Virus record (IMG/VR): IMGVR_UViG_2541047857_000011
Length of the DNA stretch: 43,118 bases
Reading direction: 5' to 3' (one strand)
Source of the DNA: a virus
Taxonomy: Duplodnaviria > Heunggongvirae > Uroviricota > Caudoviricetes
The notes below the pieces were generated by a model that worked only from the letters and a program-made list of their open reading frames with translations, made no database searches and was not told the DNA's origin. A program made the position numbers and the translations under genes. This document shows, piece by piece, positions 2,110 to 42,473 of the stretch. The stretch's first letter is position 1. Each line of letters starts with the position of its first letter.

Positions 2110-2119
2110 AGATATCCTT

Positions 2120-2836
2120 TTAATTAGGTTCAAAAATTTTAAATTCATTCCACGGCAATTTTTTCCAGTTACTGGATGGATCTTTCAACCATGCAGTGAC
2201 TTCCTTTAAATCACGGTTCGCAGTGGCGACGGGGGTATCGTATATCATTAACCATTTTTGTCGGGCGCGAACATAAGCACTGGCATAATCTTCCCATGAA
2301 GCGAAACAATCTTGTGCTCTTTGAGCATTCAGTAATAACACTATCCAGGCCTGGTTTTCATCGCACCAGCCTAAACCGGCGATGCAACGAGTTAAAAAAG
2401 CAGTGCGCATACAGTCAAACGCCAGCCCATCCAGAACCTGGCCTTGTGCTGCCAGTTGTTCGTAAAAATCATGTGGAGAATTACCAAGCCCTGTAGCCCA
2501 GCGCTGTAATATAACGCCAATTTGTTGACGGAAATCTTCGTTGCTTTGGTAAGTTTCTGTTCCTAGCTCTTGTTTAACCTGTAGTGCAAGTTGTTGACGC
2601 TTATCATCAGTCAACTTTAAATCTAACGTGAAGCCATTTACTGACAGTCCATTACGACGAGCAACTATATCACCAATTGCTAATGCCCACTTACGTCTCT
2701 TTGTTGCTCGTCTTTTGTCCTTGATTAGATCCTTTTCTTTTTCTTTAGCAATAAAAGCATCGATTTGTGGTTTGTTTTTTTTGTATCTATAGATAAAAAT
2801 AAATATTGCGACCAGGAGAACAATGATAAGACTCAT
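2120..2836 (-). CDS. Membrane-anchored hypothetical protein, 238 aa; N-terminal TM helix; C-terminal region resembles DUF1266-type proteins (tentative)
   Basis: Hydrophobic N-terminus MSLIIVLLVAIFIFIY followed by a Lys/Arg-rich stretch. Start ATG overlaps the stop of the upstream gene (ATGA at 2836-2839). The DUF1266 resemblance is from memory, not a search. Confidence 0.55.
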   Translation of the reverse strand: MSLIIVLLVAIFIFIYRYKKNKPQIDAFIAKEKEKDLIKDKRRATKRRKWALAIGDIVARRNGLSVNGFTLDLKLTDDKRQQLALQVKQELGTETYQSNEDFRQQIGVILQRWATGLGNSPHDFYEQLAAQGQVLDGLAFDCMRTAFLTRCIAGLGWCDENQAWIVLLLNAQRAQDCFASWEDYASAYVRARQKWLMIYDTPVATANRDLKEVTAWLKDPSSNWKKLPWNEFKIFEPN

Positions 2837-4050
2837 TATTTTTCAACCTCTGACAGGGGTAAGTAATGAGATGTCTGTAATGTCAAACTCTCTATCTCAA
2901 AGGAAATGTTGCTGATATTTTGACCTGCAAATTGCGGATGCCACTCAGCGCCAGGGAATAACATTTCCGCAGAAGTAGCAACTATAGGGTCAATAGCATT
3001 AAGATAATGTAACTTATCAGGTGCGCTGTGTAACAGTAACCACTGCAACTCCACTGAAGGATTTGTAAAATGTTCTAATAAATGAAAGTTATTATGTAGT
3101 ACGCTTAGTAAAAAACTGGTTTCGTATACTTCCGTTACATATTTCCACCCCTGATATTCAGGTGTATTTTCATAAACAATACCCATACCTTCACAATCAC
3201 TATGTCGAACTGCTTGTGGTGATAATAGTTGCAAAAGAGACAAAACATCGTCCGCATATTTTTTAACTGGATGACGATTTTGCTTACCTTTTATTTGATC
3301 AATTTCAAGTGAATCACCAACAACATTGAGAGCAATAGTAACATGAGGAATATTATTATTATCACGCAAACTGAATAACCGTAATTTATGTTGCTCAATT
3401 TGATTTGCATAATACTCACCATAACCACCGGTAAGATTTTTTCGATCATCAAACTGGCCTACGCAATGTTGCATATGCCATGATTCATAAGCCATTTCAC
3501 GACGAAGGTTCGAATGACTGGCATCAAACTCAACAATTTTTCCGTCTGGCACATCAAGTATTGACTTTACAGTATTTTGTTCACTCGGCTGCCACCCTTT
3601 CTCGCGTCGTTGAAGCATCTTTTCATGCTCTTCTTCACGCATTCTGAACGCAACGTAGCAGGTTATGCGCTGTAGTTTTGATTCCAGACGGGTACCACAT
3701 TTCCTGGAAAGAAATTCCACCAACTCCCGTTCTTTGGTTAATATTTGTTGATGATCGGTTTCGATATAATAAAGTGTCGCAGTTGATACTGAGGCAGTAT
3801 TAAACTTCGATACCAGCCATTCCGGGATTACATCATCATTTTTATTAAACAGTGAATATTCTGCAAGCGAGTTAATTTGTTGCACCATTGGAAAGTCACT
3901 AATTAGCCATCGATAAAAATGGTTGAGTAACCATTTTTGGATGGTCTCATTATCCTGGCGAAACAGACTTCTTTGCAAAATTGCTGTTTTTACTTCCGGG
4001 GCATTAATTACATCCCTTGCATTATAATTCTGGTGAATATTTCCAGTCAT
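2836..4050 (-). CDS. Hypothetical protein, 404 aa, first gene of the AT-rich operon
   Basis: Long ORF preceded by an AT-rich promoter-like region (4051-4270); translationally coupled to the downstream gene. Contains an HMQHCVGQ...YGEYY segment; no family assigned confidently. Confidence 0.55.
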   Translation of the reverse strand: MTGNIHQNYNARDVINAPEVKTAILQRSLFRQDNETIQKWLLNHFYRWLISDFPMVQQINSLAEYSLFNKNDDVIPEWLVSKFNTASVSTATLYYIETDHQQILTKERELVEFLSRKCGTRLESKLQRITCYVAFRMREEEHEKMLQRREKGWQPSEQNTVKSILDVPDGKIVEFDASHSNLRREMAYESWHMQHCVGQFDDRKNLTGGYGEYYANQIEQHKLRLFSLRDNNNIPHVTIALNVVGDSLEIDQIKGKQNRHPVKKYADDVLSLLQLLSPQAVRHSDCEGMGIVYENTPEYQGWKYVTEVYETSFLLSVLHNNFHLLEHFTNPSVELQWLLLHSAPDKLHYLNAIDPIVATSAEMLFPGAEWHPQFAGQNISNISFEIESLTLQTSHYLPLSEVEK

Positions 4051-5899: not shown

Positions 5900-5983
5900 T
5901 TAATTTCGATTATTTTTCCCGGATGGAAAATTCTTAGAAACCGATCACATACAGCTGCATTTATTAAGGTTATCATCCGTTTC

Positions 5984-6070
5984 GCTGAAAAACATAACCC
6001 ATAAAATGCTAGCTGTACCAGGAACCACCTCCTTAGCCTGTGTAATCTCCCTTACACGGGCTTATTTTTT
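5984..6070 (+). ncRNA. cyaR: CyaR (RyeE) Hfq-dependent sRNA
   Basis: Sequence GCTGAAAAACATAACCCATAAAATGCTAGCTGTACCAGGAACCACCTCCTTAGCCTGTGTAATCTCCCTTACACGGGCTTATTTTTT matches cyaR as I remember it, ending in its terminator hairpin and U-tract; TATCAT -10-like element at 5971-5976. Confidence 0.85.
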
Positions 6071-6071
6071 A
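6044..6071. repeat. Prophage att core, ogr-proximal copy, overlapping the cyaR 3' end
   Basis: AATCTCCCTTACACGGGCTTATTTTTTA is repeated exactly at 42446-42473 and contains the reverse complement of the 27-bp P2 att core AAAAAATAAGCCCGTGTAAGGGAGATT. Confidence 0.85.
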
Positions 6072-12977: not shown

Positions 12978-13104
12978 GCGAAAAGTGGACATTAGAGTTA
13001 CAAAAGCAAGTTTAAATCATCCAAAATATTACAATGTCCTTATCTATCTGATATCGTTATGATAAAAAGCTCCTGAATATAATCGATAGTAGGTGGTTAT
13101 TTCC

Positions 13105-13482
13105 ATGAAATCAATTTTAGAGGTTTTTACTCAAGGAAATACTAAAGAAAAACTGGCTGTTATCGCCGATCTCACAACCATTGCGGGAATATCGATTGCA
13201 ACTATTATTGCTGGTTTGTTAACCCTAGTTGCAAAAACAGATAAACTAGATGTTGGAAATCTGTTTGGAGTTGTCATAATATCTCTGCTCGGATTGGCTG
13301 GTGTTTGCTGTTTTGTGGCCTTATTTATTTGGGTTATAACCCAAATGTCTAAACCATGGGGAACACCTCGGGGGGTTCAGCCCTTAGTTAAGTGTGCTAT
13401 TTCCCTTATCTTTATCTGTATGTTTTTGCTGGCTGTCTTTACATTTTATGAGTTTATTTCTTCGATGAGCATACGCTATTGA
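13105..13482 (+). CDS. Small integral membrane protein, ~125 aa, three predicted TM helices (prophage cargo)
   Basis: AGGTGG 8 nt upstream of the ATG at 13105; TATAAT-like element upstream; three long hydrophobic segments; AT-rich; opposite strand to the flanking late genes. Confidence 0.65.
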   Translation: MKSILEVFTQGNTKEKLAVIADLTTIAGISIATIIAGLLTLVAKTDKLDVGNLFGVVIISLLGLAGVCCFVALFIWVITQMSKPWGTPRGVQPLVKCAISLIFICMFLLAVFTFYEFISSMSIRY

Positions 13483-13504
13483 ATATAAAATCAGCCCCCA
13501 TAAC

Positions 13505-14089
13505 TTAAAAGAGACCTTCTATATCGACTTCAATGCCCAAATAACGGACTGTGCTTTCCAGTTTCTTATGGCCCAACAGAAGTTGGATCCCCCGGAGACT
13601 CTTGGTTTTCTTGTAGATTAAGTAAGGTTTTGTTCTTCTCATGGAATGTGTGCTGTACAGCGAATCTTCGAGACCAAGCTTTTCTACCCACCCATGAAAA
13701 ATTCGGTTGTATTGCCGGGTTGATATATGGTGGTTAGTTCCGACCCGAGAGCGGAACAGGAAGCCTTTACTATGCCAGTTGCCGAGCTTTATCAATGCAG
13801 TAACCGCTTCCCTTGTCCCTTTGGTTATCTCAAATTGGACAGGGCTGCCGGTTTTCTGTTGCAACACCGTTGCTCTGCTTGAGACAGAACTGCCATATGC
13901 AGCATCTGATACTTTGAGTTTGACCAAATCACAGCCCCGTAGCTTAGTGTCCAAAGCCATGTTGAACAGAGCTAGATCGCGTGTTTTACCTTCCAACTCA
14001 AGTCTAATCCGGATCCCCCAGATATGAGATATCTGAAGTGGCCTTTTTTGACCGATGGTACGGTCTTTATTCCACGGTGACGTTTTCAT
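13505..14089 (-). CDS. Small tyrosine site-specific recombinase, ~194 aa (FimB/FimE-sized, catalytic core only)
   Basis: Start ATG 14087-14089 has AGGAGA 8 nt upstream. Catalytic signature present: R in TKLRGCDL, K in QQKTGSP, HSMRRT (H-x-x-R), LLGH, and Tyr in STVRYLG. No N-terminal arm-binding domain. Confidence 0.75.
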   Translation of the reverse strand: MKTSPWNKDRTIGQKRPLQISHIWGIRIRLELEGKTRDLALFNMALDTKLRGCDLVKLKVSDAAYGSSVSSRATVLQQKTGSPVQFEITKGTREAVTALIKLGNWHSKGFLFRSRVGTNHHISTRQYNRIFHGWVEKLGLEDSLYSTHSMRRTKPYLIYKKTKSLRGIQLLLGHKKLESTVRYLGIEVDIEGLF

Positions 14090-14195
14090 ATTCAAATCTC
14101 CTGCAATGTGGGAGATTTGAGTATGGTTGTCTCTCAAGAGCGAAAATAAGTCAACTATCACTAGTTGTTGCGCATGTACGTATTCTGTCAATTAA

Positions 14196-15038
14196 TTATT
14201 GACAATCATCAATTCTGGAATGATCAAAATCATCATATCGAATTATAGTCTGGTTGACTGTATCTATTGTTGGTGTCATTTCTGTTATAATATCCTGATA
14301 ACCTAAAGAGTTAAATACATTTACTAAGGCCTCACACCGAAGGGCCGTAGCAATTACAAAATTATAAATTGCCAGCCGTTTATTTTCTTGTTTAACTGCA
14401 AGAATGAATTCGATAGCAGTATTTTCATCACTTTGGATTGCATTATATAGAGATACTATATTTACCATATCATCAGAGAATGTATGTATTGAATCACAAA
14501 GAGGAACGTAATGGGCATGATAGTGTGTTTCCCAGCCAATTAATTCAAAAAGTTTTCTGGTTCCTGGATATTCAGGTGTATTTGGCCACAATCTATTAAA
14601 TAGATCAGTTAGTTCTTTTCCCATGCGAATCCTTTCATTTGCTGCTGGATTAGTCATTCCTTTGGATTTTAAACACTCCAGCCACCGTTTTCCATTACTA
14701 TGAACTAATTTCTTACTAGCCTTGAGTAATGCTTGTGCATTTTCGCCATCATCTATTGCTATATAAAATTGATTGGCAGCCTGTTCTATTATAACCCTAG
14801 CTAATACTTCCGATGCTGAAAAGGCTCCTATATTCAAAGAAGAGATAGCCTGATTACTAAGTTCATTCAGTACATTAAAGTACTGTAAGACCATCAATTT
14901 TTGTTCCACACCCTTTAGGTTGTCTATTTTATTTTTATGCTCCTCAAATTTTGCATGGATATATTTATTTATCGCGGCTATTTTTTTTACATCTTCGTCA
15001 AGATCAAACGGGCAACGTCCAAACAATTCTTTTTTCAT
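14196..15038 (-). CDS. Hypothetical protein, 280 aa, unknown function; co-oriented immediately upstream of the recombinase
   Basis: ATG at 15036-15038 with AGGAGA 6 nt upstream; AT-rich; no nucleotide-binding, RT or nuclease motif recognised. Confidence 0.65.
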   Translation of the reverse strand: MKKELFGRCPFDLDEDVKKIAAINKYIHAKFEEHKNKIDNLKGVEQKLMVLQYFNVLNELSNQAISSLNIGAFSASEVLARVIIEQAANQFYIAIDDGENAQALLKASKKLVHSNGKRWLECLKSKGMTNPAANERIRMGKELTDLFNRLWPNTPEYPGTRKLFELIGWETHYHAHYVPLCDSIHTFSDDMVNIVSLYNAIQSDENTAIEFILAVKQENKRLAIYNFVIATALRCEALVNVFNSLGYQDIITEMTPTIDTVNQTIIRYDDFDHSRIDDCQ

Positions 15039-21242: not shown

Positions 21243-21285
21243 GATTACTTAACTGGCAAAAAAACATCCTCACTAATTGGAGCCA

Positions 21286-22377
21286 ATGGATACACGCATG
21301 TCAGACATTCTAATTACTTATGATGAACGGAAAGATAAATTTGAGTCCTATGCCCTTACTCTTAAATCGTTATTAACCACGTTAATTCGCAATGAAAAAA
21401 TTTCAATTCACTCACTTGAATCAAGAGTTAAAACAAAAAAAAGCCTTGAAGGTAAGATTAATAAAAAGGGAAAATACAAGTCTATAGATGATATTACTGA
21501 TATCGTTGGTATCAGGATCATCACACATTATGCTGATGATGTTGATAAGATAGCTGCTATAGTTGAAAAGGAGTTCACCATTGACCAAGAGAACTCTATT
21601 GATAAAAGAACCTCAATTGCGCCTGATAAATTTGGTTACCTATCACTTCATTATATAGTAACTTTAAACTCAACCAGAACAAACTTAAAAGAATATGAAG
21701 TATATAAAAACATCAAAGCCGAATTACAAATACGATCAATCCTTCAGCATGCCTGGGCGGAGATTGAACACGACATTGGTTATAAGTCGGCCACAGGACT
21801 GCCTAATGAAATAAGAAGATACTTTTCACGCTTAGCTGGTCTTTTAGAAATGGCCGATGATGAATTTATTAAAATCAGAAAAAAGATTTCTGAACGGCAG
21901 AAAGAGGTTGCAAAAGAACTAGAGCAAGGAACTAGTGATTCAGTTTTAGATATTTTCACTTTGGATGAATTCTTAAACACAAGTCGAATTATGAGTGAAC
22001 TTTCAGAAGAGATAAAAGAAAAAACAGGAATCACAGTACATGGCCGATACAAGGATAAAGATTTGGGATACCTACTAAATGGTTTAAACCTAGCCAACAT
22101 AACTACAATAGAACAACTCAATCAAAAACTCTCACAAATGAAAAAGCAGATCGTAGATAGAATATTCTGCTTCGGAGAACCATTTATTAATTATTGCAGA
22201 GAAACCCCCATGCCAAAAGAAGCTCTTTTGAGTTATTTATGTCAAATTATCGTTGCGTTTCAAAACTCACCTTCGTTAGAATCTGAATTTAATAACAAAG
22301 CAGGTTTAAATCTGAAAAACAGCAATATCTCCGATTTTTTCTCGAATATAAGAGAAAACATAAGCACACAACCTTAG
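21286..22377 (+). CDS. RelA/SpoT-homolog toxin small alarmone synthetase with C-terminal extension (CapRel-like fused toxin-antitoxin)
   Basis: Synthetase motifs DIVGIRIITHY, YLSLHYIV and ELQIRSILQHAWAEIEHD in the N-terminal half, then a ~100-aa C-terminal domain; AT-rich; inserted between V and S on the opposite strand. Start could be ATG 21286 or 21298; the track start 21277 is TTG. Confidence 0.75.
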   Translation: MDTRMSDILITYDERKDKFESYALTLKSLLTTLIRNEKISIHSLESRVKTKKSLEGKINKKGKYKSIDDITDIVGIRIITHYADDVDKIAAIVEKEFTIDQENSIDKRTSIAPDKFGYLSLHYIVTLNSTRTNLKEYEVYKNIKAELQIRSILQHAWAEIEHDIGYKSATGLPNEIRRYFSRLAGLLEMADDEFIKIRKKISERQKEVAKELEQGTSDSVLDIFTLDEFLNTSRIMSELSEEIKEKTGITVHGRYKDKDLGYLLNGLNLANITTIEQLNQKLSQMKKQIVDRIFCFGEPFINYCRETPMPKEALLSYLCQIIVAFQNSPSLESEFNNKAGLNLKNSNISDFFSNIRENISTQP

Positions 22378-24828: not shown

Positions 24829-25109
24829 TACGGTTTCCCCCTGCCCTTAAAACGGCGCTGAATGGCAATCTCAATCACCTGATAACCGGCGATACCCAGC
24901 ATGGAGCCGATGCCGCACACCGCAGGCAGTGACAGGTCAGGAAACTGCACCAGAACAACACCGGCAACCATCGAGACAAAACCACCGAGCAACATGCGCC
25001 CGATAAACAGACGCGGGGTGATGGGTTCACCACCGGCAAGCACCTTGCCGACAACAATCAGCACCCCAATCATGAAAAGCGACAGGACGCTTTTTTCTTC
25101 TGCTGTCAT
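24828..25109 (-). CDS. Y: Holin (P2 gpY-like)
   Basis: 93 aa, hydrophobic, immediately upstream of the endolysin. Confidence 0.8.
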   Translation of the reverse strand: MTAEEKSVLSLFMIGVLIVVGKVLAGGEPITPRLFIGRMLLGGFVSMVAGVVLVQFPDLSLPAVCGIGSMLGIAGYQVIEIAIQRRFKGRGKP

Positions 25110-25112
25110 GCG

Positions 25113-25316
25113 TTACTCCCACAGATTGACAGTTTCAGCCACGGGCGCGGTCTGAACGTCGGGCAGTTCGACGGCGGTGCCATGTGGCAGCACCGCCCCC
25201 AGTTCAGCCAGTCCCGGATTTGCGGCGAGCACGGTCTCAACCACGCCCTCAGTGCGCCCGTAATACCGGACACAAATGGCGTCGAGCGTGTCGCCCTGTA
25301 GCGCAAAGGTCTTCAT
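25113..25316 (-). CDS. X: Tail protein X (P2 gpX-like), 67 aa
   Basis: Starts MKTFALQGDTLDAICVRYYGRTEGVVE; start ATG overlaps the L stop. Confidence 0.8.
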   Translation of the reverse strand: MKTFALQGDTLDAICVRYYGRTEGVVETVLAANPGLAELGAVLPHGTAVELPDVQTAPVAETVNLWE

Positions 25317-25825
25317 CAGATTTGACTCACGATGCAGCGCGGCTTGTCCTGGATACGCGCCACTGCCCAGCGCATATCCCGCCACAGTTCATCAATGGTG
25401 CTGTCAATGCTGTCGGCCTTCTTGTCGCCTTTCGCACTGGCATCCACGCCGCGGTAACGCTCATAAAGCGACGCGGTCGCCATCGCACACACGGCGCGCT
25501 CGTAGTAAAAAACTTTGATACTTTCACCGTCGATGTCGTCCGCCGGAACGTCCGCCAGACGCGTAAAACCGGCGGCTATTTTCTGTTCGCGGTACTCGTA
25601 CAGCTCCGCATTCGTCTCCGCCATGCCTGACTTGATGGCCTCACGCAGACGGGCGGGGGCGACGGTCTGCTCAAGGCGCATACGTTCCCGGACGCGCTTC
25701 GGGTCGATATCGGGAAAAAAGAACGTGTTTTTAATCACCGGCTCGTCGCCTGCCGGTTGCGGGATGACCACCGTACCCTCACCGGACACGGGAGCCTCCT
25801 TTCGCGGAATAATCAGCGTCATCAT
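25316..25825 (-). CDS. L: Head completion protein (P2 gpL-like)
   Basis: 169 aa from MMTLIIPRKEAPVSGEG. Confidence 0.85.
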   Translation of the reverse strand: MMTLIIPRKEAPVSGEGTVVIPQPAGDEPVIKNTFFFPDIDPKRVRERMRLEQTVAPARLREAIKSGMAETNAELYEYREQKIAAGFTRLADVPADDIDGESIKVFYYERAVCAMATASLYERYRGVDASAKGDKKADSIDSTIDELWRDMRWAVARIQDKPRCIVSQI

Positions 25826-25924
25826 GACTACCTCTGAAAAGTCGGGCGGTGGACGCCGGTGCAGTGTCAGGTGATTCACCCTCACTGACCGGCGTGCCGC
25901 CCTGGCGCGGGGCGCATTCGGTTG

Positions 25925-26668
25925 TTAACTGGCTTTCTTTTTCGGGCGTCCACGTTTTGCCGGTGTCGCACTCCGGGTCTTACGCGGGGCGCAGGTGGCC
26001 GCTTTTGGCTGTGGCTCCGGCTTCGGTTTCAGTTCCCGCTCCAGTCGTTCAATCTCTTTTTTGACGCCTGCCTGACAGTCGAGCTGTGTCGCACGTTGCA
26101 GGTGCGCCAGCGCACCTGCGGCATCACCAGCGTCACGCAGAAACAGACCGGTGATTTTGTGCAGCTTTGCGCGCACTTCATCAGGCATGTCAGCCGTGGC
26201 GGTCAGTTCGAGGGTGTCCGTCAGCAGGCGGGGATCCACAGACTCACCGGCAGCGTGGGCGCGCATGGCCGCGAGCGCCACCTCCTCGGTGAACATGTAC
26301 GGCGGGGTGCGGCGGTGTTTACCCGGCATGGTCAGACCGTACTTCAGGGCATAACGGGCAATCTCCAGCGCACCGGCAATATCGCCGGTATCCAGACGCC
26401 ACAGCATGACCGTCATCAGAATGTCATCCTGTGCACCTTTGCCCTGCTCCAGCACGCCGTTCACCCACGGCAACCAGAACGGCAGCAGTTCGCGTTTTTT
26501 CGCGGCCTTAAGCTCTTTTGAGTAAATCGCTTTCAGTGTGCGCTGGTCTGCGGCGAGCTTAACCAGCATCTGCTCATAGACAGTTGCATGTCGCAGCGGG
26601 GCGGCTTCCCGCTGCGCGGTCATCGCTGCCGAGACCCGCATCATGTGGCGCTGTGCGGGACTCGTCAT
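25925..26668 (-). CDS. M: Terminase small (endonuclease) subunit (P2 gpM-like)
   Basis: 247 aa, same size as P2 M; synteny N-M-L. Confidence 0.85.
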   Translation of the reverse strand: MTSPAQRHMMRVSAAMTAQREAAPLRHATVYEQMLVKLAADQRTLKAIYSKELKAAKKRELLPFWLPWVNGVLEQGKGAQDDILMTVMLWRLDTGDIAGALEIARYALKYGLTMPGKHRRTPPYMFTEEVALAAMRAHAAGESVDPRLLTDTLELTATADMPDEVRAKLHKITGLFLRDAGDAAGALAHLQRATQLDCQAGVKKEIERLERELKPKPEPQPKAATCAPRKTRSATPAKRGRPKKKAS

Positions 26669-26671
26669 CAG

Positions 26672-27745
26672 TTACGCTCCCGGCTCTGCGGTCGCCCTGG
26701 CCGGTGTGGAGAAATCACCGACCTTAATTTTTTCCACCAGGCAACCGGCGGCGTAGTCTTCCACCACGTAATCAATATTCATTGACTCGTAGTTCTCCAC
26801 GCGGTCGAGTTTCGGGTTTTCCACAATCACGCGGCGATGGCTGTCATCCATGTAGTAGATGGACAGGTTTTCCAGCTTCGTGATGAGCATCGCATCCGCC
26901 GGGAAGTACGGGACGCGTACCGCTGGCAGGTTGCCGATGCGTTTCTGGCTGATGATGACGTCAGCGGCCAGCATCTCGCTGTTGTCCTGCTCCTTGTTGA
27001 CGATGGGGAAATACTTGTCCGCCAGTAGCTGACGCCCCACAATCACCACAAGGTCAGGGTCTTCCTGATACCACGGTTCAATCAGGTTGTTGGTCGCATC
27101 CATCACCAGTGCATCAAGGCGGGCATAATCACCGCCCTTACCCACGCGGATAACCTCAGAGGTGGTGCGGCCTTCCTCGTCAGTGACCTTGCTCATCACG
27201 CGCGCCGGGGCTTCATTGCGGTATTTCTGCAGCCAGCCGACCGCCACATCCTGCAACATCGGATTGCTGCTGCGGTCAGAGGTTTCGGCACGCTTCACGC
27301 CGTTAAAACCGGCCATGATTAAATCAAGGGACTGGCGTTTGATAATGGCGTTACGGACACGGAGCTGGAAATCCTGATAACGCGCCCACAGGTCAAGCGT
27401 TTTGTAGCGGATATAAAAATCGAAGTTAATCTGGTCGCATTCGTACTTACTGGACGCCAGCTTCGAGAAGTCCTTCGGCTGACGCTCGGTGCCACCGGCG
27501 GTGTCGGTGGTGCTGGCGATGGAGCCGGTGACACCAATACCAATTTTTTCCCCTTTCATTTCGCTGACCGGCACAATGTTGATGCGGGTCAGAAAGTCAG
27601 AGGACTCCTGCATGGTGTTCATCAGGGTCTGGGTGACCGACGGTTCAACGGTGAATTTTTTCGACACATCACCGGCGTCGATGCCGTTCAGCTCGGCAAC
27701 ACGGGACAGGTAGGCATTAAATTTAAAGCGGGTTTCCTGGCGCAT
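26672..27745 (-). CDS. N: Major capsid protein (P2 gpN-like)
   Basis: 357 aa, same size as P2 N. Confidence 0.9.
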   Translation of the reverse strand: MRQETRFKFNAYLSRVAELNGIDAGDVSKKFTVEPSVTQTLMNTMQESSDFLTRINIVPVSEMKGEKIGIGVTGSIASTTDTAGGTERQPKDFSKLASSKYECDQINFDFYIRYKTLDLWARYQDFQLRVRNAIIKRQSLDLIMAGFNGVKRAETSDRSSNPMLQDVAVGWLQKYRNEAPARVMSKVTDEEGRTTSEVIRVGKGGDYARLDALVMDATNNLIEPWYQEDPDLVVIVGRQLLADKYFPIVNKEQDNSEMLAADVIISQKRIGNLPAVRVPYFPADAMLITKLENLSIYYMDDSHRRVIVENPKLDRVENYESMNIDYVVEDYAAGCLVEKIKVGDFSTPARATAEPGA

Positions 27746-31977: not shown

Positions 31978-33810
31978 TCAAACAGAGCCCTGTTCAAATA
32001 CAGTATCAAAATATGGTAGGAGAGGATAAGCACACAGAAAGAAAATCAGGATGCATGCATATGTCGTTGTTTCATCGTAACAAGCATTAGTATATAAATT
32101 ACCATGTGCTAATTTATGTCTTAAGGTTGCCCCACTCTTTCTATTAAAAAGAACATCGATAGTTAAAACAAGATTCTTAGAAAAGATACTTTCCAAATCA
32201 TCTCTGCATTTATCTAGAAGCTGAGAAATACTTGTTGACTCCTCTAATCCCTTATCCAAATATCTAGTAGCATCCTTTCCACTAAGCTCATAATAATAAC
32301 GAACCATACCTTCCATTTGTGGTATTAAAAGATAAGCTGCACTGATGTAATCTCCCTGCCATAATTTGTAAAAGCCCAAATTAAAAATCTCCCTAAACTC
32401 CGGCTTGACAATTGGACTAGTTGTAACTAATTTAACGAATGTTGACAACGTCAAGCCATGTTCTTGAGAAAGTACATAGCGAGCAGGTTCAAAGACACCG
32501 TTTACAAAAATCTTATGAGTAATCTCGAAATTTCTTAGATATTGATCAATAACAACATCATCACTCATATCTTTTTTATTATTCAACGGCGGGATTGTAT
32601 ATACCTTACGCCCACTCTCATCATTAATTTCTGTTCCAACAAAACTAGAGAATAAACTTTTTTCTGATAATCTTAAAACTTGCTCCCTCATGCTTTCAAT
32701 ATTTTCAATCGGTGTTTCACGCATTAAAACTTTGAATATATCGGGCAAAGAACGCCCCGTCAGTTTTTTTTCACTTTCAGCAACCAAGTCACTAATATCA
32801 ATAGAATGGCTTAAAGTGACATATTCACTCCTTACTTCTTCTCTCAAATTAGCAAGTTGTTCCTTTAAATCTTCTATCTGTTGGCTATCACCACCATACT
32901 GTCTTAATTCAGAGATAGCTGTTCTTAACCAAGAGATCTTACCCATATTATCAGGTCGATCTGTTGCAACTTTAATAGTAATATTTGCAGATGCCAGTTT
33001 ACATCTCTTGGCACGTTCATACTCACCATTTTTTTCATAAATAACTGCACTTGTCATATAAAGTGATTTTACAGCATCATAATATTTTTTATCTTTATGC
33101 TGCTCAGCCATCTTCTCAGCATTTTCCGCATACTGCAGATTATACCCATCAAAATCACGCACCATAAACCAAGTCAAATTATTGAAACCTTCAAAGATTA
33201 ATCTTTCATTTTGAATACTATAAAGAGAATGAATGGCATTTTTAATCGCCATGTTTCCTTCTGATTTTCTAGGGTAGACCATTTTATTAATGTGCAAAGC
33301 CCTAGCAATATAATCACGAGCAAAAATAAAGCAATTTAAATCACTTTCATCCATGCTTTCGTTTTTTATTATTAGTTTTTCAATTGCTATATTTAGCATT
33401 TCAGCATAGGAATCAATTGCTTTAATTGCCACGTCTTTGTTTTTCCGGTTATTACACCAAACAACATCATATATTCTTGATAACAAAAATGGATTGGTTA
33501 TTTTTTGAGAAACATATAAAAGACAGTCATTCACCTGCTCATCAAAATCTTCAGGCAATATTGATCTTTTATTACCCCAAATCATTTGGGGTTCAAATGA
33601 TGGAGTGTTGTTAACAACTTGCAAATTGAAACTATATAGCATACCAAAAAGAGATGCTAATTTTTTCTCTTTGGGGTTTCCTGATGATTCAGCAATCCCA
33701 TCCAGATATTTTTTTATTTTATGTGCATGAAATGTAACTGGTATATGCATAAAAACACTATAATCTAGTGTTTCAAGCTCTTCCCTTGTAAGAACAAAGA
33801 TATCATTCAT
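31978..33810 (-). CDS. Large hypothetical protein, ~610 aa, with C-terminal Rx4HG (HEPN-like) motif; candidate abortive-infection effector at the P2 tin/old position
   Basis: Start set at ATG 33808-33810 (MNDIFVLTREE) with AAGGTGA 7 nt upstream; the track's longest ORF starts at 33912 without an SD. Strongly AT-rich. C-terminal LRHKLAHG; no Walker A motif, so not an Old-type ATPase. Confidence 0.65.
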   Translation of the reverse strand: MNDIFVLTREELETLDYSVFMHIPVTFHAHKIKKYLDGIAESSGNPKEKKLASLFGMLYSFNLQVVNNTPSFEPQMIWGNKRSILPEDFDEQVNDCLLYVSQKITNPFLLSRIYDVVWCNNRKNKDVAIKAIDSYAEMLNIAIEKLIIKNESMDESDLNCFIFARDYIARALHINKMVYPRKSEGNMAIKNAIHSLYSIQNERLIFEGFNNLTWFMVRDFDGYNLQYAENAEKMAEQHKDKKYYDAVKSLYMTSAVIYEKNGEYERAKRCKLASANITIKVATDRPDNMGKISWLRTAISELRQYGGDSQQIEDLKEQLANLREEVRSEYVTLSHSIDISDLVAESEKKLTGRSLPDIFKVLMRETPIENIESMREQVLRLSEKSLFSSFVGTEINDESGRKVYTIPPLNNKKDMSDDVVIDQYLRNFEITHKIFVNGVFEPARYVLSQEHGLTLSTFVKLVTTSPIVKPEFREIFNLGFYKLWQGDYISAAYLLIPQMEGMVRYYYELSGKDATRYLDKGLEESTSISQLLDKCRDDLESIFSKNLVLTIDVLFNRKSGATLRHKLAHGNLYTNACYDETTTYACILIFFLCAYPLLPYFDTVFEQGSV

Positions 33811-33926: not shown

Positions 33927-35838
33927 TTATTGCTCTGAATAACAATAAAACCAACTCCACTCATCAGCGACCGGATACGTAAATTTTTTCCCGTTGTAAT
34001 CTACGGTCGCACCACGCGCCAGCGCCTCAAGCTCCCATCGCTGCGGCCTGATACCGTTCTGAGCAAGGTCAACGCGGATACGGGTAATTTGCATTCTTTC
34101 CGACCGGGTCAGTCTGGCCGATGGCGCTATTTCATGCGGTTTTAACGGGCTTCCGTTTCTTTGCTGACGGTTTGGTGTTATCAGGTCGTGTTTTAATGCG
34201 CCCCTGAGCGCCCTCACGACCTCCGGGTCATTCCATTCGATAACACCGTCATCAACCAGATTAAGCACTGCTGCGGCGTGTTCAGAAGGTGTGGGAGCCG
34301 GTAACGAAGTATCACCACTGGTGAGCTTTCCACAGTTATTGACAGGACTCCGAGGCGCGGCGATGCCGCTTTTTAAAGTCAAAGGCTCCACGACCGGAAC
34401 TTTCGGAACAATGCGCCAGTCCGTCGTTCTGGTGATATGAATATGACGCGCGCCGAGATGCGGCGCGTAAATGCCGACCACTCTCTCGACTTCTTCCTCG
34501 TACTCGTTAACTTCATCCGACGGGCTACGGGCGACTCTGACAGTCTGGCAATCGCGCGGAACATTTGCCCCACCCTGCGCACTGATATACAACGCAAAAT
34601 CGCCACTGTCTGCGGCAGCGCGTGCAGCCTCGACGCGTTCGTCAAACTCATCAGCAATGCTGACGCCGCGAGGCAATTTGCGTAGTTCACGGTAAGCCCC
34701 CATTGTCGGCAGACCAACCGTTTTAAATTGCGGGATGCGCCACGTTGACGCCCATGCAGTAACAGCCGCGGCAGTATCTTTCAGAGGTCTGCCGGTATCG
34801 TTATCGAGCTGACCATCCAGTGCATAGCCGTCGATATTTTTTGAAATGTATTTCGCGATATATCCCGCAGCACCGCCCCGGTTAAGGTGCTTTGCCTGAA
34901 AACGGTTTCGCGCGGCTCCTCTTTCGTCACCATCCTCTTTGAGCGCATAGCGACGCATGATTTCGATAATCTGATTACGCTGGCGTGGATTACAAAAAAG
35001 CATCATATGCCAGTGCGGCGTTCCGTCGTGGTGTGGCTCGACGACACGCAAACCGTAGACCTGTAAATCATTATCCTTGAATGCCGTGCGCATCAGGCTC
35101 CAGATGCGGCAGAGATAACGCTGCGCATCCTTTGGATTAAATGCCTCATCGTTCCAGCCGTGATTTAGCTGGACGGTTTTACTTTCGCCTTTTCCGACCT
35201 GACGTGTCGGGTGATACTTTGACGGCGCGGTCAGCGTGATAAACATCCCCACATCACCCTCTGCGGCGGCGTAACGCTCAATACCGGCAATGGTGTTCAT
35301 CAGCTCCATCCGGCGAATTTCAGGATTAGAAATACTTCCCATCACCTTACTGATAAGGTCGATGCGCTCGCCGGTTTCCCTGTTTTCAAGGTCACACGAT
35401 TTAAGAAATTCCAGATTTGCCTGGCGGCGCGCACGCACATCACGAATGGCATGTTTACTGGCATAAGGAGAACGGTCTTTATTGACCTCCCCGACAGCAA
35501 TCAGTAACGCTTCATGCCAGCGCATACGCTGACCTTTAAGCTGATGAGTCCACCACTCATCGTTAAACAGGCGGGCAATGGCAGAATATGCCTGCCTCGT
35601 GGTCATCTGTCCTTTACGGTATTTTTTCCAGTAAAGCGGGGAAATATTGAAAGCACGTGCAGCGCCAGCAACATGACCATACAGGTGAGCCTGAGCCTCA
35701 TCCGTAAACAGTGATTCTTTTTCGCCATGCGCATCCCCCCAGGCATCGCTGATTTCCTCATACATCATGAAAAGCTGCGATGAGATACGGGCGGCAAACT
35801 TTTTCAGCTCCTTATCATTCATCCCCGGCAGACGCGCA
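33927..35838 (-). pseudogene. A: P2 gpA replication initiation protein, C-terminal ~637 codons, separated from its 5' end by an IS insertion
   Basis: Reading frame continues ...ARLPGMNDKELKKFAARISSQLF... as in P2 A; the apparent ATG at 35873 lies inside the IS end. Confidence 0.85.
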
Positions 35839-35923
35839 TGCGTATTACCGTGAAGGAGATCGGTGAGTAACATCGATGGAGATCGGTTCGTGTCACTTTC
35901 ACAGAACCGTTTTTAAATTACCT

Positions 35924-36673
35924 TCACTGATCTCCTTCGGTCAACGGTGATTGTATTTTCCGCATTGATTCTCCTTTAAGTTCGATCTTGATACTGCCAT
36001 GAACCAGTCGATCTAGGATGGCATCCGCATGTGTGGAGTCTCCGATCATTTTGTACCAGTTTTCCACCGGCAACTGGCTCACTACGATGATTGAGCCTCG
36101 TTGGTACATCAGATCCACTATTTCCAGCAGGTCGCTACGCTGTTCTGATGAGAGAGGTTCCAGCCCCCAGTCATCCAGAAGCAGCAGATCGCTATTATTC
36201 AGCCTGGTCAAAAGTTTGCTGTATCTTCCATCAGCATGCCCCTGATAGCACTGTTCCATCAGCGCTTTAAGGCGATAATAGTAGACCTTGTATCCCTGTC
36301 GGCAGGCATTATGACCAAGTGCACATGCCAGGAACGTTTTACCGCTGCCGGTGGCCCCGGTCAGTAAAATATTTTGTTTCAGGGTTAACCAGTTTCCCTG
36401 ACTGAGTGAACGGATGAGGGCCCTGTCCAGCCCTCTATTGTTACGATAATCCAGCTTTGATAACTCAGCATTAAGTCTGAACCGTGCATGTTTGATCAGA
36501 CGCTCTGCCTTCCTGTTTTCACGGCAGGTTAGTTCTTCTGCTGTCAGTAATGACAGGCGTTCTTCGAAGCCCAGCTCCTGGTATGTGCCCGGCTGAGCAA
36601 GTTGCTTTTTAAGCGCATCACGGAAGCCGGTGAGTTTAAGTGCGGTCAGTTGTTCGTAAAGATGATTCATCAT
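35924..36673 (-). CDS. istB: IS21-family helper ATPase IstB
   Basis: 249 aa with Walker A GATGSGKT and Walker B LLLLDDWG; immediately downstream of istA. Confidence 0.9.
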   Translation of the reverse strand: MMNHLYEQLTALKLTGFRDALKKQLAQPGTYQELGFEERLSLLTAEELTCRENRKAERLIKHARFRLNAELSKLDYRNNRGLDRALIRSLSQGNWLTLKQNILLTGATGSGKTFLACALGHNACRQGYKVYYYRLKALMEQCYQGHADGRYSKLLTRLNNSDLLLLDDWGLEPLSSEQRSDLLEIVDLMYQRGSIIVVSQLPVENWYKMIGDSTHADAILDRLVHGSIKIELKGESMRKIQSPLTEGDQ

Positions 36674-36684
36674 TGGATCCCGTA

Positions 36685-38226
36685 TCAGTGGTAATACTCA
36701 CTGCCGCGTACGTTTTCGTGTTCCATCGTGGATAACAGATCTGGTTTTGGATCCTGAACAGGTTGTTTATCCAGACCTTTTTCCAGGATCGATTTAATAC
36801 CTGACAGACGCCATACCTTTGTTTTCAGAGCTCTTGCACATGCTGCATTAAGTCTGGCTTTACTGTATTTTTTATGAAGGTTCAGGAGTCCAAGGCAGAA
36901 GCGATAGCTTTGTTCCGGATGTGGACGAGAGTTCAGTATATGAAGCACATAACTATGAGTTTCACTGCCTATGTGCCCCGCCCATTCCAGAAGACGCTCT
37001 GGCGTCCAGGTGGCATGCTGTCGATGAGCTTCAGGCATGTGCTCGTTGCGGGTACTGTAGCCATAAGTACGCTTGCGCGGGTGCACAGCAACCTCCTGCC
37101 CCTGATTGAAGAGTCTTACCAGTTCTCCGGAGATCCATGCTTCCAGTTGCTGGCCTAACAGCGAACATGGAACCGAGTAGTAATGTTTGTCGATTTCCAC
37201 GTGGTAATCGGCATGAACTCTGACTTTCTTCACCAGGGTGTAACTGTAACTGGCTTCAGGAAGAGGCTTCAGTGCGGGTTTATCAAGCTGGATGAAGAGT
37301 TCTGCACGTGAATAACCCAACTTCTGCATTATTTTGTTATTCAGTCTTTCCAGCAACTCCCGAATGCGCTGATTAAGCGATGCAAGGCTGTAGAAGATCT
37401 CATGCCTGATTCGGGCCATGATCCAGCGTTCAACAACCTGAACGCCAACTTCAGCTTTGGCTTTATCTTTCGGTTTACGTGGCCGCGCAGGCAAAACTGC
37501 GACATTATAATGCTCAAGCATCTGCTGGTAGGTAGGGTTAACGTCAGGATCATACTTACATGCCCTGGATGTGGCGCTTTTCAGATTGTCCGGAACAACA
37601 AGTTCAGGAACGCCACCCAACCACTGGAAGCAGCGAACATGACTCATCACCCAGTCTTCAAGCTGCTGAGACCAGGTGGCCTCTGCCCATGTGTAACTTG
37701 ATGCCCCGAGAACAGCTACGATGACCTGAGCAGTTCTTATTTCTCCGGTCTCAGGGTCGGTAACGCCAACGGTAGGTCCACAGTAATCAACGAAAAGTTT
37801 TTCGCCAGCTTTATGTACCTGACGCATTGATGGTGAAGTGGTTTTGAGCCATTCACGGTACATCCGGCAGTAATGGTTATAGCTGTAAAAACCGCCTGGA
37901 TTACGCTCACAGTATTCTTCCCAGAGTAGCTGCAGCGTCACGCATTTATTACGCAGTTCCCGGTGTACTGTAGCCCAGTCAGGCAGAGAGTGCTTCTTCA
38001 TCTTAACCTGGGTCTGAAGGAACGCATGTTTTAGTTTTGTATCATCCCATCCTGTAGGTAAGGGCCACTGCTTTATGCCAAGTTGAGCCGCCCGATTAGC
38101 ATATCTGGATACAACGGAAGGGGAGATTGCAAGACTACGACCAATTTGTCGATGGCTGAGTCCAACACCGTATTTAAGCCTAAGAATTTCTTTAAGTTTT
38201 CTCATAGAAATTGGAACTGTTGGCAT
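36685..38226 (-). CDS. istA: IS21-family transposase IstA
   Basis: 513 aa with an N-terminal helix-turn-helix region and a DDE-type core; paired with istB. Confidence 0.85.
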   Translation of the reverse strand: MPTVPISMRKLKEILRLKYGVGLSHRQIGRSLAISPSVVSRYANRAAQLGIKQWPLPTGWDDTKLKHAFLQTQVKMKKHSLPDWATVHRELRNKCVTLQLLWEEYCERNPGGFYSYNHYCRMYREWLKTTSPSMRQVHKAGEKLFVDYCGPTVGVTDPETGEIRTAQVIVAVLGASSYTWAEATWSQQLEDWVMSHVRCFQWLGGVPELVVPDNLKSATSRACKYDPDVNPTYQQMLEHYNVAVLPARPRKPKDKAKAEVGVQVVERWIMARIRHEIFYSLASLNQRIRELLERLNNKIMQKLGYSRAELFIQLDKPALKPLPEASYSYTLVKKVRVHADYHVEIDKHYYSVPCSLLGQQLEAWISGELVRLFNQGQEVAVHPRKRTYGYSTRNEHMPEAHRQHATWTPERLLEWAGHIGSETHSYVLHILNSRPHPEQSYRFCLGLLNLHKKYSKARLNAACARALKTKVWRLSGIKSILEKGLDKQPVQDPKPDLLSTMEHENVRGSEYYH

Positions 38227-38419
38227 AGGTATCCTTTACCGGAATGGCAAAAGATACAGATCAACACACCTGTGAAGTTCCAATAACATTGATGGAGATC
38301 ACTGAATAACAAAATGAGTCAAAAGTGATCTCCATCGATGTTATTCAGCGATCTGTTCAAATGTTATTACCCGATCTCGATGGAAGTTATTGAGTGATCT
38401 CCTTTCATGAAAATACGCA

Positions 38420-38798
38420 GACGCGCATAATGGTCACGCTCTGCCAGAAACAGCAACGACGCGTCGGTGTTCATTTCATGGCGCTGATTCACACGCTCAA
38501 TGCGCGGCCATAAACGACGCTGAAAAGTGGATGTGAGGAAATAAAACCCGTGCACCGGGCTTTTATTGCGCCGGATGTAGTCATAGCGTGAAGTAAACAG
38601 CGAGCGCAAAAAGTAAGGCAGGCGATTAATCGTGGATAAAACACCTTGCACCTGACGCATCTCGTCACGTGTAAGGGGTCTTTCGCGCCCGACGGCCTCG
38701 CGTGGCGCATTCCATGCATAAGCACCGGTAAACGTCTCACCGGTGCCTGCGGCAAATGCTGACGGAGGGACAAAACGCCCGGAGGCTTTAACGGCCAT
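38420..38798 (-). pseudogene. A: P2 gpA replication initiation protein, N-terminal ~126 codons (5' fragment upstream of the IS)
   Basis: MAVKASGRFVPPSAFAAGTGETFTGAYAWNAPREAVGRERPLTRDEM... up to ...LAERDHYARL, then the frame runs into the IS end. Confidence 0.85.
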
Positions 38799-41356: not shown

Positions 41357-42366
41357 ATGGCAATCAAAAAACTCGATGATGGTCGATATGAAGTGGACAT
41401 CCGCCCTACTGGACGTAATGGAAAACGCATCCGTAGGAAGTTTGATAAGAAAAGCGAAGCTGTCGCTTTCGAGAAATACACGTTGTACAACCACCACAAT
41501 AAAGAATGGCTATCAAAACCAACAGACAAGCGACGTCTGTCGGAGCTGACACAGATCTGGTGGGATTTAAAGGGTAAACACGAAGAGCATGGGAAATCTA
41601 ATCTTGGAAAAATTGAAATCTTCACAAAAATAACGAATAACCCATGCGCATTTCAAATTACGAAATCGCTTATCAGCCAGTACTGCGCCACCCGAAGAAG
41701 TCAGGGTATTAAACCTTCGAGTATCAATCGTGATTTAACATGTATTAGCGGCATGTTTACAGCCCTGATTGAAGCGGAGTTATTCTTTGGTGAGCACCCT
41801 ATCAGAGGGACAAAAAGGCTTAAGGAGGAAAAACCAGACACAGGCTATCTCACGCAGGAAGAAATTGCCTTACTGCTTGCTGCTCTTGACGGCGACAACA
41901 AAAAGATTGCGATTCTTTGCCTGAGTACTGGAGCACGTTGGGGAGAAGCAGCTCGTTTGAAAGCAGAAAATATCATCCATAACCGCGTCACGTTTGTTAA
42001 AACGAAAACAAACCACGCACCGTCCCGATCTCAGAGGCTGTTGCCAAAATGATCGCGGATAACAAACGAGGTTTTTTATTCCCTGATGCTGATTACCCTC
42101 GCTTCAGACGAACAATGAAAGCAATAAAACCGGATTTGCCAATGGGGCAAGCCACACATGCACTAAGGCACAGCTTTGCCACTCATTTCATGATTAATGG
42201 AGGAAGTATTATCACGCTACAACGGATACTAGGTCACACGCGGATTGAGCAAACTATGGTTTACGCTCATTTTGCGCCAGAGTACCTTCAGGACGCCATT
42301 TCTCTTAATCCGCTAAGAGGTGGTACTGAGGCCGAGAGTGTCCACACAGTGTCCACAGTAGAGTAA
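41357..42366 (+). pseudogene. int: P2-type tyrosine integrase, frameshifted (two overlapping ORFs of 231 and 105 codons)
   Basis: N-terminal ORF ends ...VTFVKTKTNHAPSRSQRLLPK. The next frame encodes ...PRTVPISEAVAKMIADNKRGFLF...HALRHSFATH...LGHTRIEQTMVYAH (box II). The frames join if one base is restored near 42014. Confidence 0.75.
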
Positions 42367-42445: not shown

Positions 42446-42473
42446 AATCTCCCTTACACGGGCTTATTTTTTA
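42446..42473. repeat. Prophage att core, int-proximal copy
   Basis: Exact 28-bp repeat of 6044-6071. Confidence 0.85.

Follow-up and report, generated by a model that had tools for sequence, protein, structure and literature searches.

What splits the replication gene A (gpA) of this P2-like prophage, and is the split an ordinary step of prophage decay or a sign of some special relation between the inserted element and its target? The gene lies in a stretch of 43,118 nucleotides (the window, meaning the whole stretch analysed here), in which the prophage is integrated at the cyaR/yegR attachment site; the strain is a close relative of E. coli S88. The prophage shows the P2 gene order, running from ogr through the late operons and Q/P to the early operon cox-B-A, with C and int, and it is bounded by attachment sites. 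This assignment is based on the annotation of the identical S88 prophage, on the att repeats and on gpA matches in Peduovirus. The two att repeats are perfect over 28 bp; the left one (6044-6071) overlaps the 3' end of the CyaR sRNA gene (5982-6067) and the right one lies at 42446-42473. CyaR is the only match in an Rfam scan of the window, which found nothing inside the IS or gpA.

Gene A, on the minus strand, is split inside codon 127 by an insert of 2589 bp, and its reading frame is no longer continuous. The 5' fragment is a 143-aa open reading frame (ORF; 38367-38798, minus strand; gpA proper 38420-38798) that comprises native residues 1-127, reads ...ERDHYARL and then runs through 16 IS-encoded residues to a stop. 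The 3' fragment (33927-35873, minus strand; gpA proper 33927-35838) retains native residues 125-760 and emerges from the IS as ...THARLPGMND... When the IS and one repeat copy are removed, a gpA of 760 amino acids is restored that is identical to the intact gpA of S88 and that aligns to P2 gpA in a single piece, with 97.1% identity over 100% of its length; many Peduovirus genomes carry a gpA that is 97-99% identical to it. An earlier note on this DNA had claimed that the frame is intact on both sides of the insert (...HYARL, then ARLPGMND) and had suggested the alignment of the two fragments to P2 A as a check, and the continuity that it predicted holds.

The reconstructed protein has the features of an HUH initiator: a Phage_GPA domain (PF05840, E = 4e-124), the motif H399-W-H401 and the tyrosines Y450/Y454. 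All of these map to the 3' fragment. The same fragment contains the counterpart of the P2 ori nick site (P2 29892), which P2 annotation and alignment place at 34351 on the minus strand; the 201 bp around the P2 nick site align at 97.5% to window positions 34251-34451.

The IS itself is 2581 bp long (35839-38419), has its genes on the minus strand and matches copies in S88 and ATCC 11775 at 100% identity. It starts with TGCGTATT and ends with AATACGCA, as do 12 other copies at other sites, so that the ends are fixed independently by 13 insertions including that of the window. The first gene, istA (36685-38226, minus strand), encodes a DDE transposase of 513 amino acids with the Pfam domains rve and Mu-transpos_C_2, and its product scores 310 bits against NCBIfam NF033546 (cut-off 160). 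The second, istB (35924-36673, minus strand), encodes an AAA+ helper ATPase of 248-249 amino acids that matches Pfam IstB_IS21 (E = 2e-67) and scores 270 bits against NF038214 (cut-off 200). Both NCBIfam models, for the IS21 transposase and for IstB, are equivalogs, and each is passed at its own cut-off. The two genes are consecutive on the same strand with 11 nt between them, which is the two-gene arrangement of IS21 elements, and the earlier assignment to this family is borne out.

The ends of the element are also those of an IS21 relative, with imperfect terminal inverted repeats and 5'-TG...CA-3' termini (repeat family I8). At the istB-side terminus (35839-35942), repeated motifs containing GGAGATC start at 35855 and 35878, with an inverted one at 35929 (repeat families D1, D2, I1, I2 and I12). 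The istA-side terminus (38282-38419) carries, besides the terminal inverted repeat, motifs at 38294, 38327 and 38396 (I1-I8). GGAGATC is concentrated here, since six of its eight sites in the 43-kb window fall within about 140 bp of the IS ends. The short repeats near both ends (D1, D2; inverted I1-I7, I12 and I13) are typical of IS21 elements and are presumed to be IstA binding sites. As for identity, the istA DNA is the same as that of the ISEc12 copy in ATCC 11775, where the product is WP_001298859.1, and the RefSeq name for the identical proteins WP_001298859.1 and WP_001016257.1 is "IS21-like element ISEc12 family." Judged by this naming of identical copies, the IS is ISEc12, a catalogued IS21-family element abundant in E. 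coli (2350 records match at 99% identity or more).

Across the junctions the window reads CCCCGGCA, GACGCGCA, the IS (TGCGTATTACC...GAAAATACGCA), GACGCGCA again and TAATGG. The two copies of GACGCGCA (35831-35838 and 38420-38427) are evident from the sequence and from repeat analysis, and a single copy stands at the empty site in S88, where 281 bp across the insertion, less the IS and one repeat copy, are matched exactly. The earlier note had thus given the element of 2581 bp and its 8-bp direct repeat correctly to the base. The exact direct repeat extends to 12 bp (GCAGACGCGCAT, repeat family D20) because the IS coincides by chance with the target in its last three bases and its first base; with a total insert of 2589 bp, the target duplication remains one of 8 bp. 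By chance, an 8-bp match at two given positions would be expected with a frequency of about 1/65,536, and the uninterrupted target in S88 makes a chance origin irrelevant. Direct target duplications in the IS21 family range from 4 to 8 bp (ISfinder). The duplication found here is at the upper end of that range and is atypical for ISEc12, since the 12 other copies are flanked by duplications of 5 bp (n = 9) or 6 bp (n = 3).

Comparison with S88 indicates that the IS insertion is neither the sole lesion of the prophage nor the first. The integrase pseudogene (41357-42366, plus strand) has lost 4 bp after 42005, as seen in the alignment to the intact ATCC 11775 allele, and the resulting frameshift after residue 217 precedes the catalytic motifs of the C-terminal part, leaving no functional integrase gene. 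The prophage was therefore already defective for excision. The same 4-bp deletion is found in S88, where the gene is annotated "frameshifted," and the lesion is thus older than the IS insertion. The prophages of E. coli S88, MS7163, N53 and N62 share with the window the att site, the integrase frameshift and the cargo genes, with one mismatch in 40.5 kb. They differ in the position of the IS: in these strains gpA is intact and ISEc12, in S88 identical over 2581/2581 positions, lies in the capsid gene N, in the opposite orientation and with a 5-bp duplication. In the window, N (26672-27745, minus strand) is intact, and ACTGG at 27331-27335 is the empty site of the S88 insertion.

No change is seen in any of the structural and lysis genes, in ogr or in the candidate defence cargo genes. 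The cargo genes had been described as intact, and they are, because the prophage is identical to that of S88; for the same reason, near identity to the prophage of a sister strain, their intactness is uninformative about selection. The earlier description of the prophage as "domesticated or defective" stands in its second half, given the integrase frameshift common to S88, while its first half is left without support.

The explanation that we regard as very probable is transposition of a single intact ISEc12 copy into gene A of a prophage of P2-like (Peduovirus) type. In the established scheme of IS21-family transposition, the TG...CA ends would have been joined to target cuts with an 8-bp stagger by the DDE transposase IstA and the AAA+ ATPase IstB, which captures the target, and gap repair of these cuts would have produced the GACGCGCA duplication. 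The break inside codon 127 parts the first 127 residues from the HUH motif and Y450/Y454. In P2, gene A is essential and cis-acting, and late transcription requires replication. The prophage should thus be unable to nick ori, to replicate or to switch on its own late genes; the loss of rolling-circle replication can be soundly inferred from P2 A being essential. P4 has no need of the P2 genes A and B, and the prophage could in principle still supply late functions to a P4-like satellite. By parsimony from one sister lineage, the integrase deletion would have come first and the insertion second, as a more recent, lineage-specific event. With the integrase already broken, the insertion would be an ordinary decay step, part of the routine stepwise inactivation of a prophage no longer able to excise.

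Might the insertion instead have been favoured? ISEc12 could prefer P2-like DNA, gpA especially, or there could be selection for killing replication in a prophage that cannot excise; in the latter variant, replication in situ and late-gene expression after derepression would be lethal, and the defence cargo would be kept. P2-like prophages do carry ISEc12 at no fewer than 14 distinct sites; gpA accounts for five (nt ~215, 372-379, ~516, ~1288 and ~1818), and the others are in N, W, W/J, O/P, P/Q, Q-cargo (two sites), cargo and the tail region. In 86 of 5426 complete genomes the 5' region of gpA has ISEc12 no more than about 2 kb away, and in each of two sister lineages the same excision-defective prophage has acquired it in an essential phage gene. 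However, most of the 86 genomes share a single clonal event, and three of the five gpA insertions (L001, L002 and L017) came from queries containing gpA flanks, so that their ascertainment is biased; the fifth (L014) came from a later 22-kb query. A query with the whole right arm gave six further insertions, none in gpA, and the idea of a gpA hot spot was rejected.

Nor do orientation and target sequence speak for a preference. The first nine insertions in P2-like prophages were all co-oriented with gpA, but an S88-oriented query, a synthetic query with the IS reverse-complemented and individual loci revealed insertions in the opposite orientation, one of them in gpA. The apparent rule was a search artefact, because the search joined pieces on one strand only. 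A target-site motif was likewise discarded, the 13 aligned target sites having no consensus. The selective variant has the further difficulty that the S88 insertion in N leaves replication unstopped. Outside P2-like prophages, ISEc12 is also found mostly in mobile elements (lambdoid Q genes, CbtA islands, plasmid tra/par genes), and purifying selection in core genes alone would give this pattern. We therefore consider a favoured insertion unlikely. Slightly less likely still is the general proposal that ISEc12 is a recurrent "disarming" agent, through either preferential capture of P2-like DNA or positive selection of disabling insertions; biased ascertainment, together with purifying selection in the rest of the genome, accounts for the same data. 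Were it true, ISEc12 would lock P2-like prophages in place, leaving them to carry defence genes (PDC-S39, a RelA/SpoT-like toxin), and disarmed prophages with intact late genes would also serve as P4 helpers. P2 prophages do not appear as a subject in the literature on ISEc12 that we inspected.

Could replication be impaired rather than abolished? An in-frame ATG at 35873, within the IS, opens a potential fusion ORF of 648 amino acids that is predicted by gene callers and holds the complete Pfam Phage_GPA domain (ORF residues 21-350) with HUH and Y450/Y454. The ori is intact in cis and istAB and gpA are co-oriented, so that read-through from istAB might express a truncated gpA that still nicks ori. 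Yet no Shine-Dalgarno-like sequence was detected before this ATG, and a consensus scan, which overall did not exceed shuffled expectation, gave no outward promoter-like site at the IS end. The 124 N-terminal residues that would be lost lie in the full-length, 97%-identical alignment with P2 gpA, consistent with their being needed. An active product of this kind seems to us quite improbable; residual nicking activity stays formally conceivable insofar as the 3' fragment keeps all recognisable catalytic elements, the ori and an in-frame ATG.

The two ISEc12 copies, 100% identical (2581/2581) and about 8.5 kb apart in otherwise identical prophages, could also stem from a single insertion, if the IS left the N site that it occupies in S88 by precise excision and moved to gpA. 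But at the N site the window has one clean, scarless ACTGG, precise IS excision is rare, the two copies are in opposite orientations, and other donor copies of 100% identity exist in this lineage, one of them on the S88 plasmid (hit H211); we hold such a move to be highly improbable. Although IS elements often cause misassembly, a repeat-induced misjoin that put an IS copy inside gpA is the least credible reading of all, as the sequence is contiguous across both junctions, the 8-bp duplication is perfect, the empty site fits the frame exactly, and the 143-aa junction product is called on 24 public contigs of different assemblies, six of them longer than 1 Mb. The same junction on so many contigs shows it to be real and inherited. 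A search of the 5426 complete E. coli genomes did not find the exact gpA::ISEc12 junction, which turned up in draft or other assemblies through the exact junction protein.

A simple ISEc12 insertion into a decaying prophage, the reading that we prefer, resembles several known systems. A tssM::ISEc12 insertion, with a 5-bp duplication at tssM, is fixed in E. coli ST131 clade C (PMC10711316). It involves the same element by RefSeq naming, and there too a simple intragenic insertion with target duplication inactivated a gene and was then inherited vertically; the target gene differs, as does the duplication length (8 bp here). With IS21, the prototype from plasmid R68.45, the window element shares istA (HTH + DDE) followed by istB (AAA+), TG...CA termini and multiple short end repeats. 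IS21 is about 2.1 kb long and makes 4-bp duplications, whereas the window element has 2581 bp and is a single copy, without the tandem (IS)2 reactive junction of IS21. The interrupted gene conserves the HUH motif, Y450/Y454 and the in-gene ori nick site of P2 gene A, the rolling-circle initiator. Whereas the P2 A-defective mutants are point or amber mutants of a viable phage, the gene here belongs to a resident prophage and is interrupted by an IS. E. coli K-12 carries a cryptic P2 remnant in the same chromosomal attachment region (cyaR-ogrK-yegZ-yegR), of which only ogr and a D fragment are kept. That remnant represents the end stage of P2 prophage decay, while the window prophage is of full length with two point-like lesions.

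What we see here, then, is a known element and an ordinary decay step, not a new kind of system, and apart from getting the annotation right it has little significance. Wider interest would attach only to an ISEc12 that enters P2-like prophages more often than selection alone explains. Both gpA fragments and both integrase fragments belong to a single P2-like prophage and should be labelled pseudogenes; release of this phage by the strain is not to be expected. The alternative positions of ISEc12, in gpA here and in N in S88, are handy lineage markers within the S88-related clade.

The replication gene A of this P2-like prophage, whose product is gpA, is interrupted by a 2581-bp element that begins with TGCGTATTACC at 35839 and ends with GAAAATACGCA at 38419. 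When window 35700-38560 is read directly, the target octamer GACGCGCA appears twice, at 35831-35838 and 38420-38427, bracketing the element. A repeat finder reports a longer exact flanking identity of 12 bp (GCAGACGCGCAT): the target resembles the IS termini (...CGCA|T), and three bases at the end of the element and one at its start coincide by chance with the target bases next to them. The termini TGCGTATT...AATACGCA recur in all 12 other copies that we compared, at other sites; these copies set the true ends and so the length of the duplicated target, 8 bp. Of the 13 copies, nine have a 5-bp and three a 6-bp duplication, and only the window copy has 8 bp. Judging from the biology of the IS21 family, insertion by IstA and IstB would have used target cuts with an 8-bp stagger.

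Two co-oriented ORFs on the minus strand fill the element. The product of the first (513 amino acids; 36685-38226) matches Pfam rve and Mu-transpos_C_2 and the NCBIfam IS21-transposase equivalog (310 bits; cut-off 160 bits), and that of the second (249 amino acids; 35924-36673) matches Pfam IstB_IS21 (E = 2e-67) and the NCBIfam IstB equivalog (270 bits; cut-off 200 bits). These profiles, with the octamer at both flanks, bear out the earlier note, which had described an IS21-family element with an 8-bp target duplication. RefSeq assigns the transposase and the helper ATPase of identical copies to the “IS21-like element ISEc12 family”. A motif containing GGAGATC occurs in several copies at each end of the element, six of its eight occurrences in the 43-kb window being no more than about 140 bp from a terminus. 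Multiple terminal repeats are typical of the IS21 family, and the motif copies match this type. Megablast against 5426 complete E. coli genomes finds the element in 2711, with at least 99% identity in 2350 records. The case is an ordinary one, a known IS inside a known gene.

Removal of the element and one repeat copy restores a 2283-nt ORF, whose 760 amino acid product does not differ from the intact “replication endonuclease” that E. coli S88 encodes; this strain carries a sister copy of the prophage. Across the empty site, too, 281 bp agree exactly with S88. The restored product aligns with bacteriophage P2 gpA in one piece (97.1% identity over 100% of the length), the comparison by which the claim of a frame intact and continuous across the two fragments was to be checked; that claim holds. 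The break lies inside codon 127 (gpA nt 372-379). Upstream of it, a 143 amino acid ORF combines 127 native residues with 16 derived from the IS. The downstream fragment (residues 125-760) retains the whole Pfam Phage_GPA domain, with H399-W-H401 and Y450/Y454, and also contains the position homologous to the P2 ori nick (approximately window 34351). An in-frame ATG at 35873, within the IS, opens a 648 amino acid fusion ORF; no Shine-Dalgarno-like sequence was found ahead of this ATG, nor did a consensus scan detect an outward promoter-like site at the IS end.

The exact gpA junction was not found among the 5426 complete genomes. Among public contigs, however, 24 have a gene call for the 143 amino acid junction product, and six of these exceed 1 Mb; this rules out misassembly, and the insertion is real and inherited.

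Over 40.5 kb, the window and S88 differ by one mismatch (window 27121) and two alternative IS positions. In the S88 prophage gpA is intact and a 100% identical ISEc12 (24841-27421 of the S88 locus, L010) interrupts capsid gene N instead, oppositely oriented and with a 5-bp duplication, ACTGG; in the window, gene N retains ACTGG as a clean single copy, the empty site, at 27331-27335. Identical donor copies are present in the lineage, one of them on the S88 plasmid (H211). The window holds a complete P2-like prophage between perfect 28-bp att repeats (6044-6071 and 42446-42473). The CyaR (RyeE) sRNA gene (gene plus repeat, 5982-6071; Rfam, 100.7 bits) overlaps the left repeat with its 3' end, so the prophage used this end of cyaR for integration and regenerates the gene. 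The integrase is a pseudogene (41357-42366) with a 4-bp deletion after 42005 (AAAC relative to the ATCC 11775 allele), which throws the reading frame off after residue 217, before the catalytic C-terminal motifs are reached. Since S88 carries the same deletion, the integrase lesion predates the IS insertion, which is the second lesion of the prophage. In the simplest history, the prophage would have lost the ability to excise first, and the window and S88 lineages would then each have gained ISEc12 independently.

ISEc12 is found at no fewer than 14 distinct sites in P2-like prophages of E. coli (loci L001, L002, L004-L009 and L014-L017). Besides that of the window, four lie in gpA: at nt ~215 (L001), ~1288 (L002, a clonal allele of many genomes) and ~1818 (L014) in the orientation of gpA, and at nt ~516 (L017) in the opposite one. 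Other sites are in N, W, W/J, O/P and P/Q, at two positions in Q cargo, in a cargo ATPase gene and, with an associated deletion, in the tail region. An apparent orientation rule proved to be an artefact of the search tool, which joins pieces on one strand only; opposite-orientation events exist, one of them in gpA. A control search that mirrored the first, with the IS reverse-complemented, gave 9 genomes versus 77, an excess due mainly to one clone. No target consensus was found across 13 target sites. Outside P2-like prophages, ISEc12 is mostly in other mobile elements. This bias is a prediction of purifying selection against core-gene insertions, and we therefore do not claim targeting of P2-like prophages.

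The cargo includes a 610 amino acid DUF7380 gene (31978-33810, minus strand), downstream of gpA in the tin/old position of P2, which matches the PADLOC candidate defence family PDC-S39 over its full length (E = 8e-85); the 116-nt gap after gpA contains three weak promoter-like sites. Phage genes V and S are separated by an inserted RelA/SpoT-like “GTP pyrophosphokinase” gene (21277-22377, plus strand; PADLOC candidate family PDC-S33, E = 1e-16), possibly a defence gene of the toxic small alarmone synthetase type. A second island (13093-15038), flanked by genes for the tail sheath and for tail-fibre assembly, carries a hypothetical 125 amino acid ORF, a short tyrosine-recombinase-like gene (194 amino acids) and a DUF5677 gene, none with a PADLOC match. 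In the flank upstream of trhP (yegQ), window 1-4050 (minus strand) contains a 715 amino acid ORF running off the window and, according to the S88 annotation, a DUF1266 gene and a PcfJ-domain gene.

The earlier note is confirmed in its observation as a whole, and its interpretation is supported with caveats. “Domesticated” is unsupported, since near-identity to S88 leaves no time for informative decay. P2 gpA is essential and cis-acting, so a prophage deprived of it would neither nick ori nor undergo rolling-circle replication, and the interrupted prophage has probably lost replication. As P2 late transcription depends on replication, self-driven late expression would presumably be absent too. 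The late genes and ogr are unchanged, and a P4-like satellite does not need P2 A or B; the prophage could thus in principle still serve such a satellite. The S88 allele, in contrast, with its IS in N, could probably not do so.
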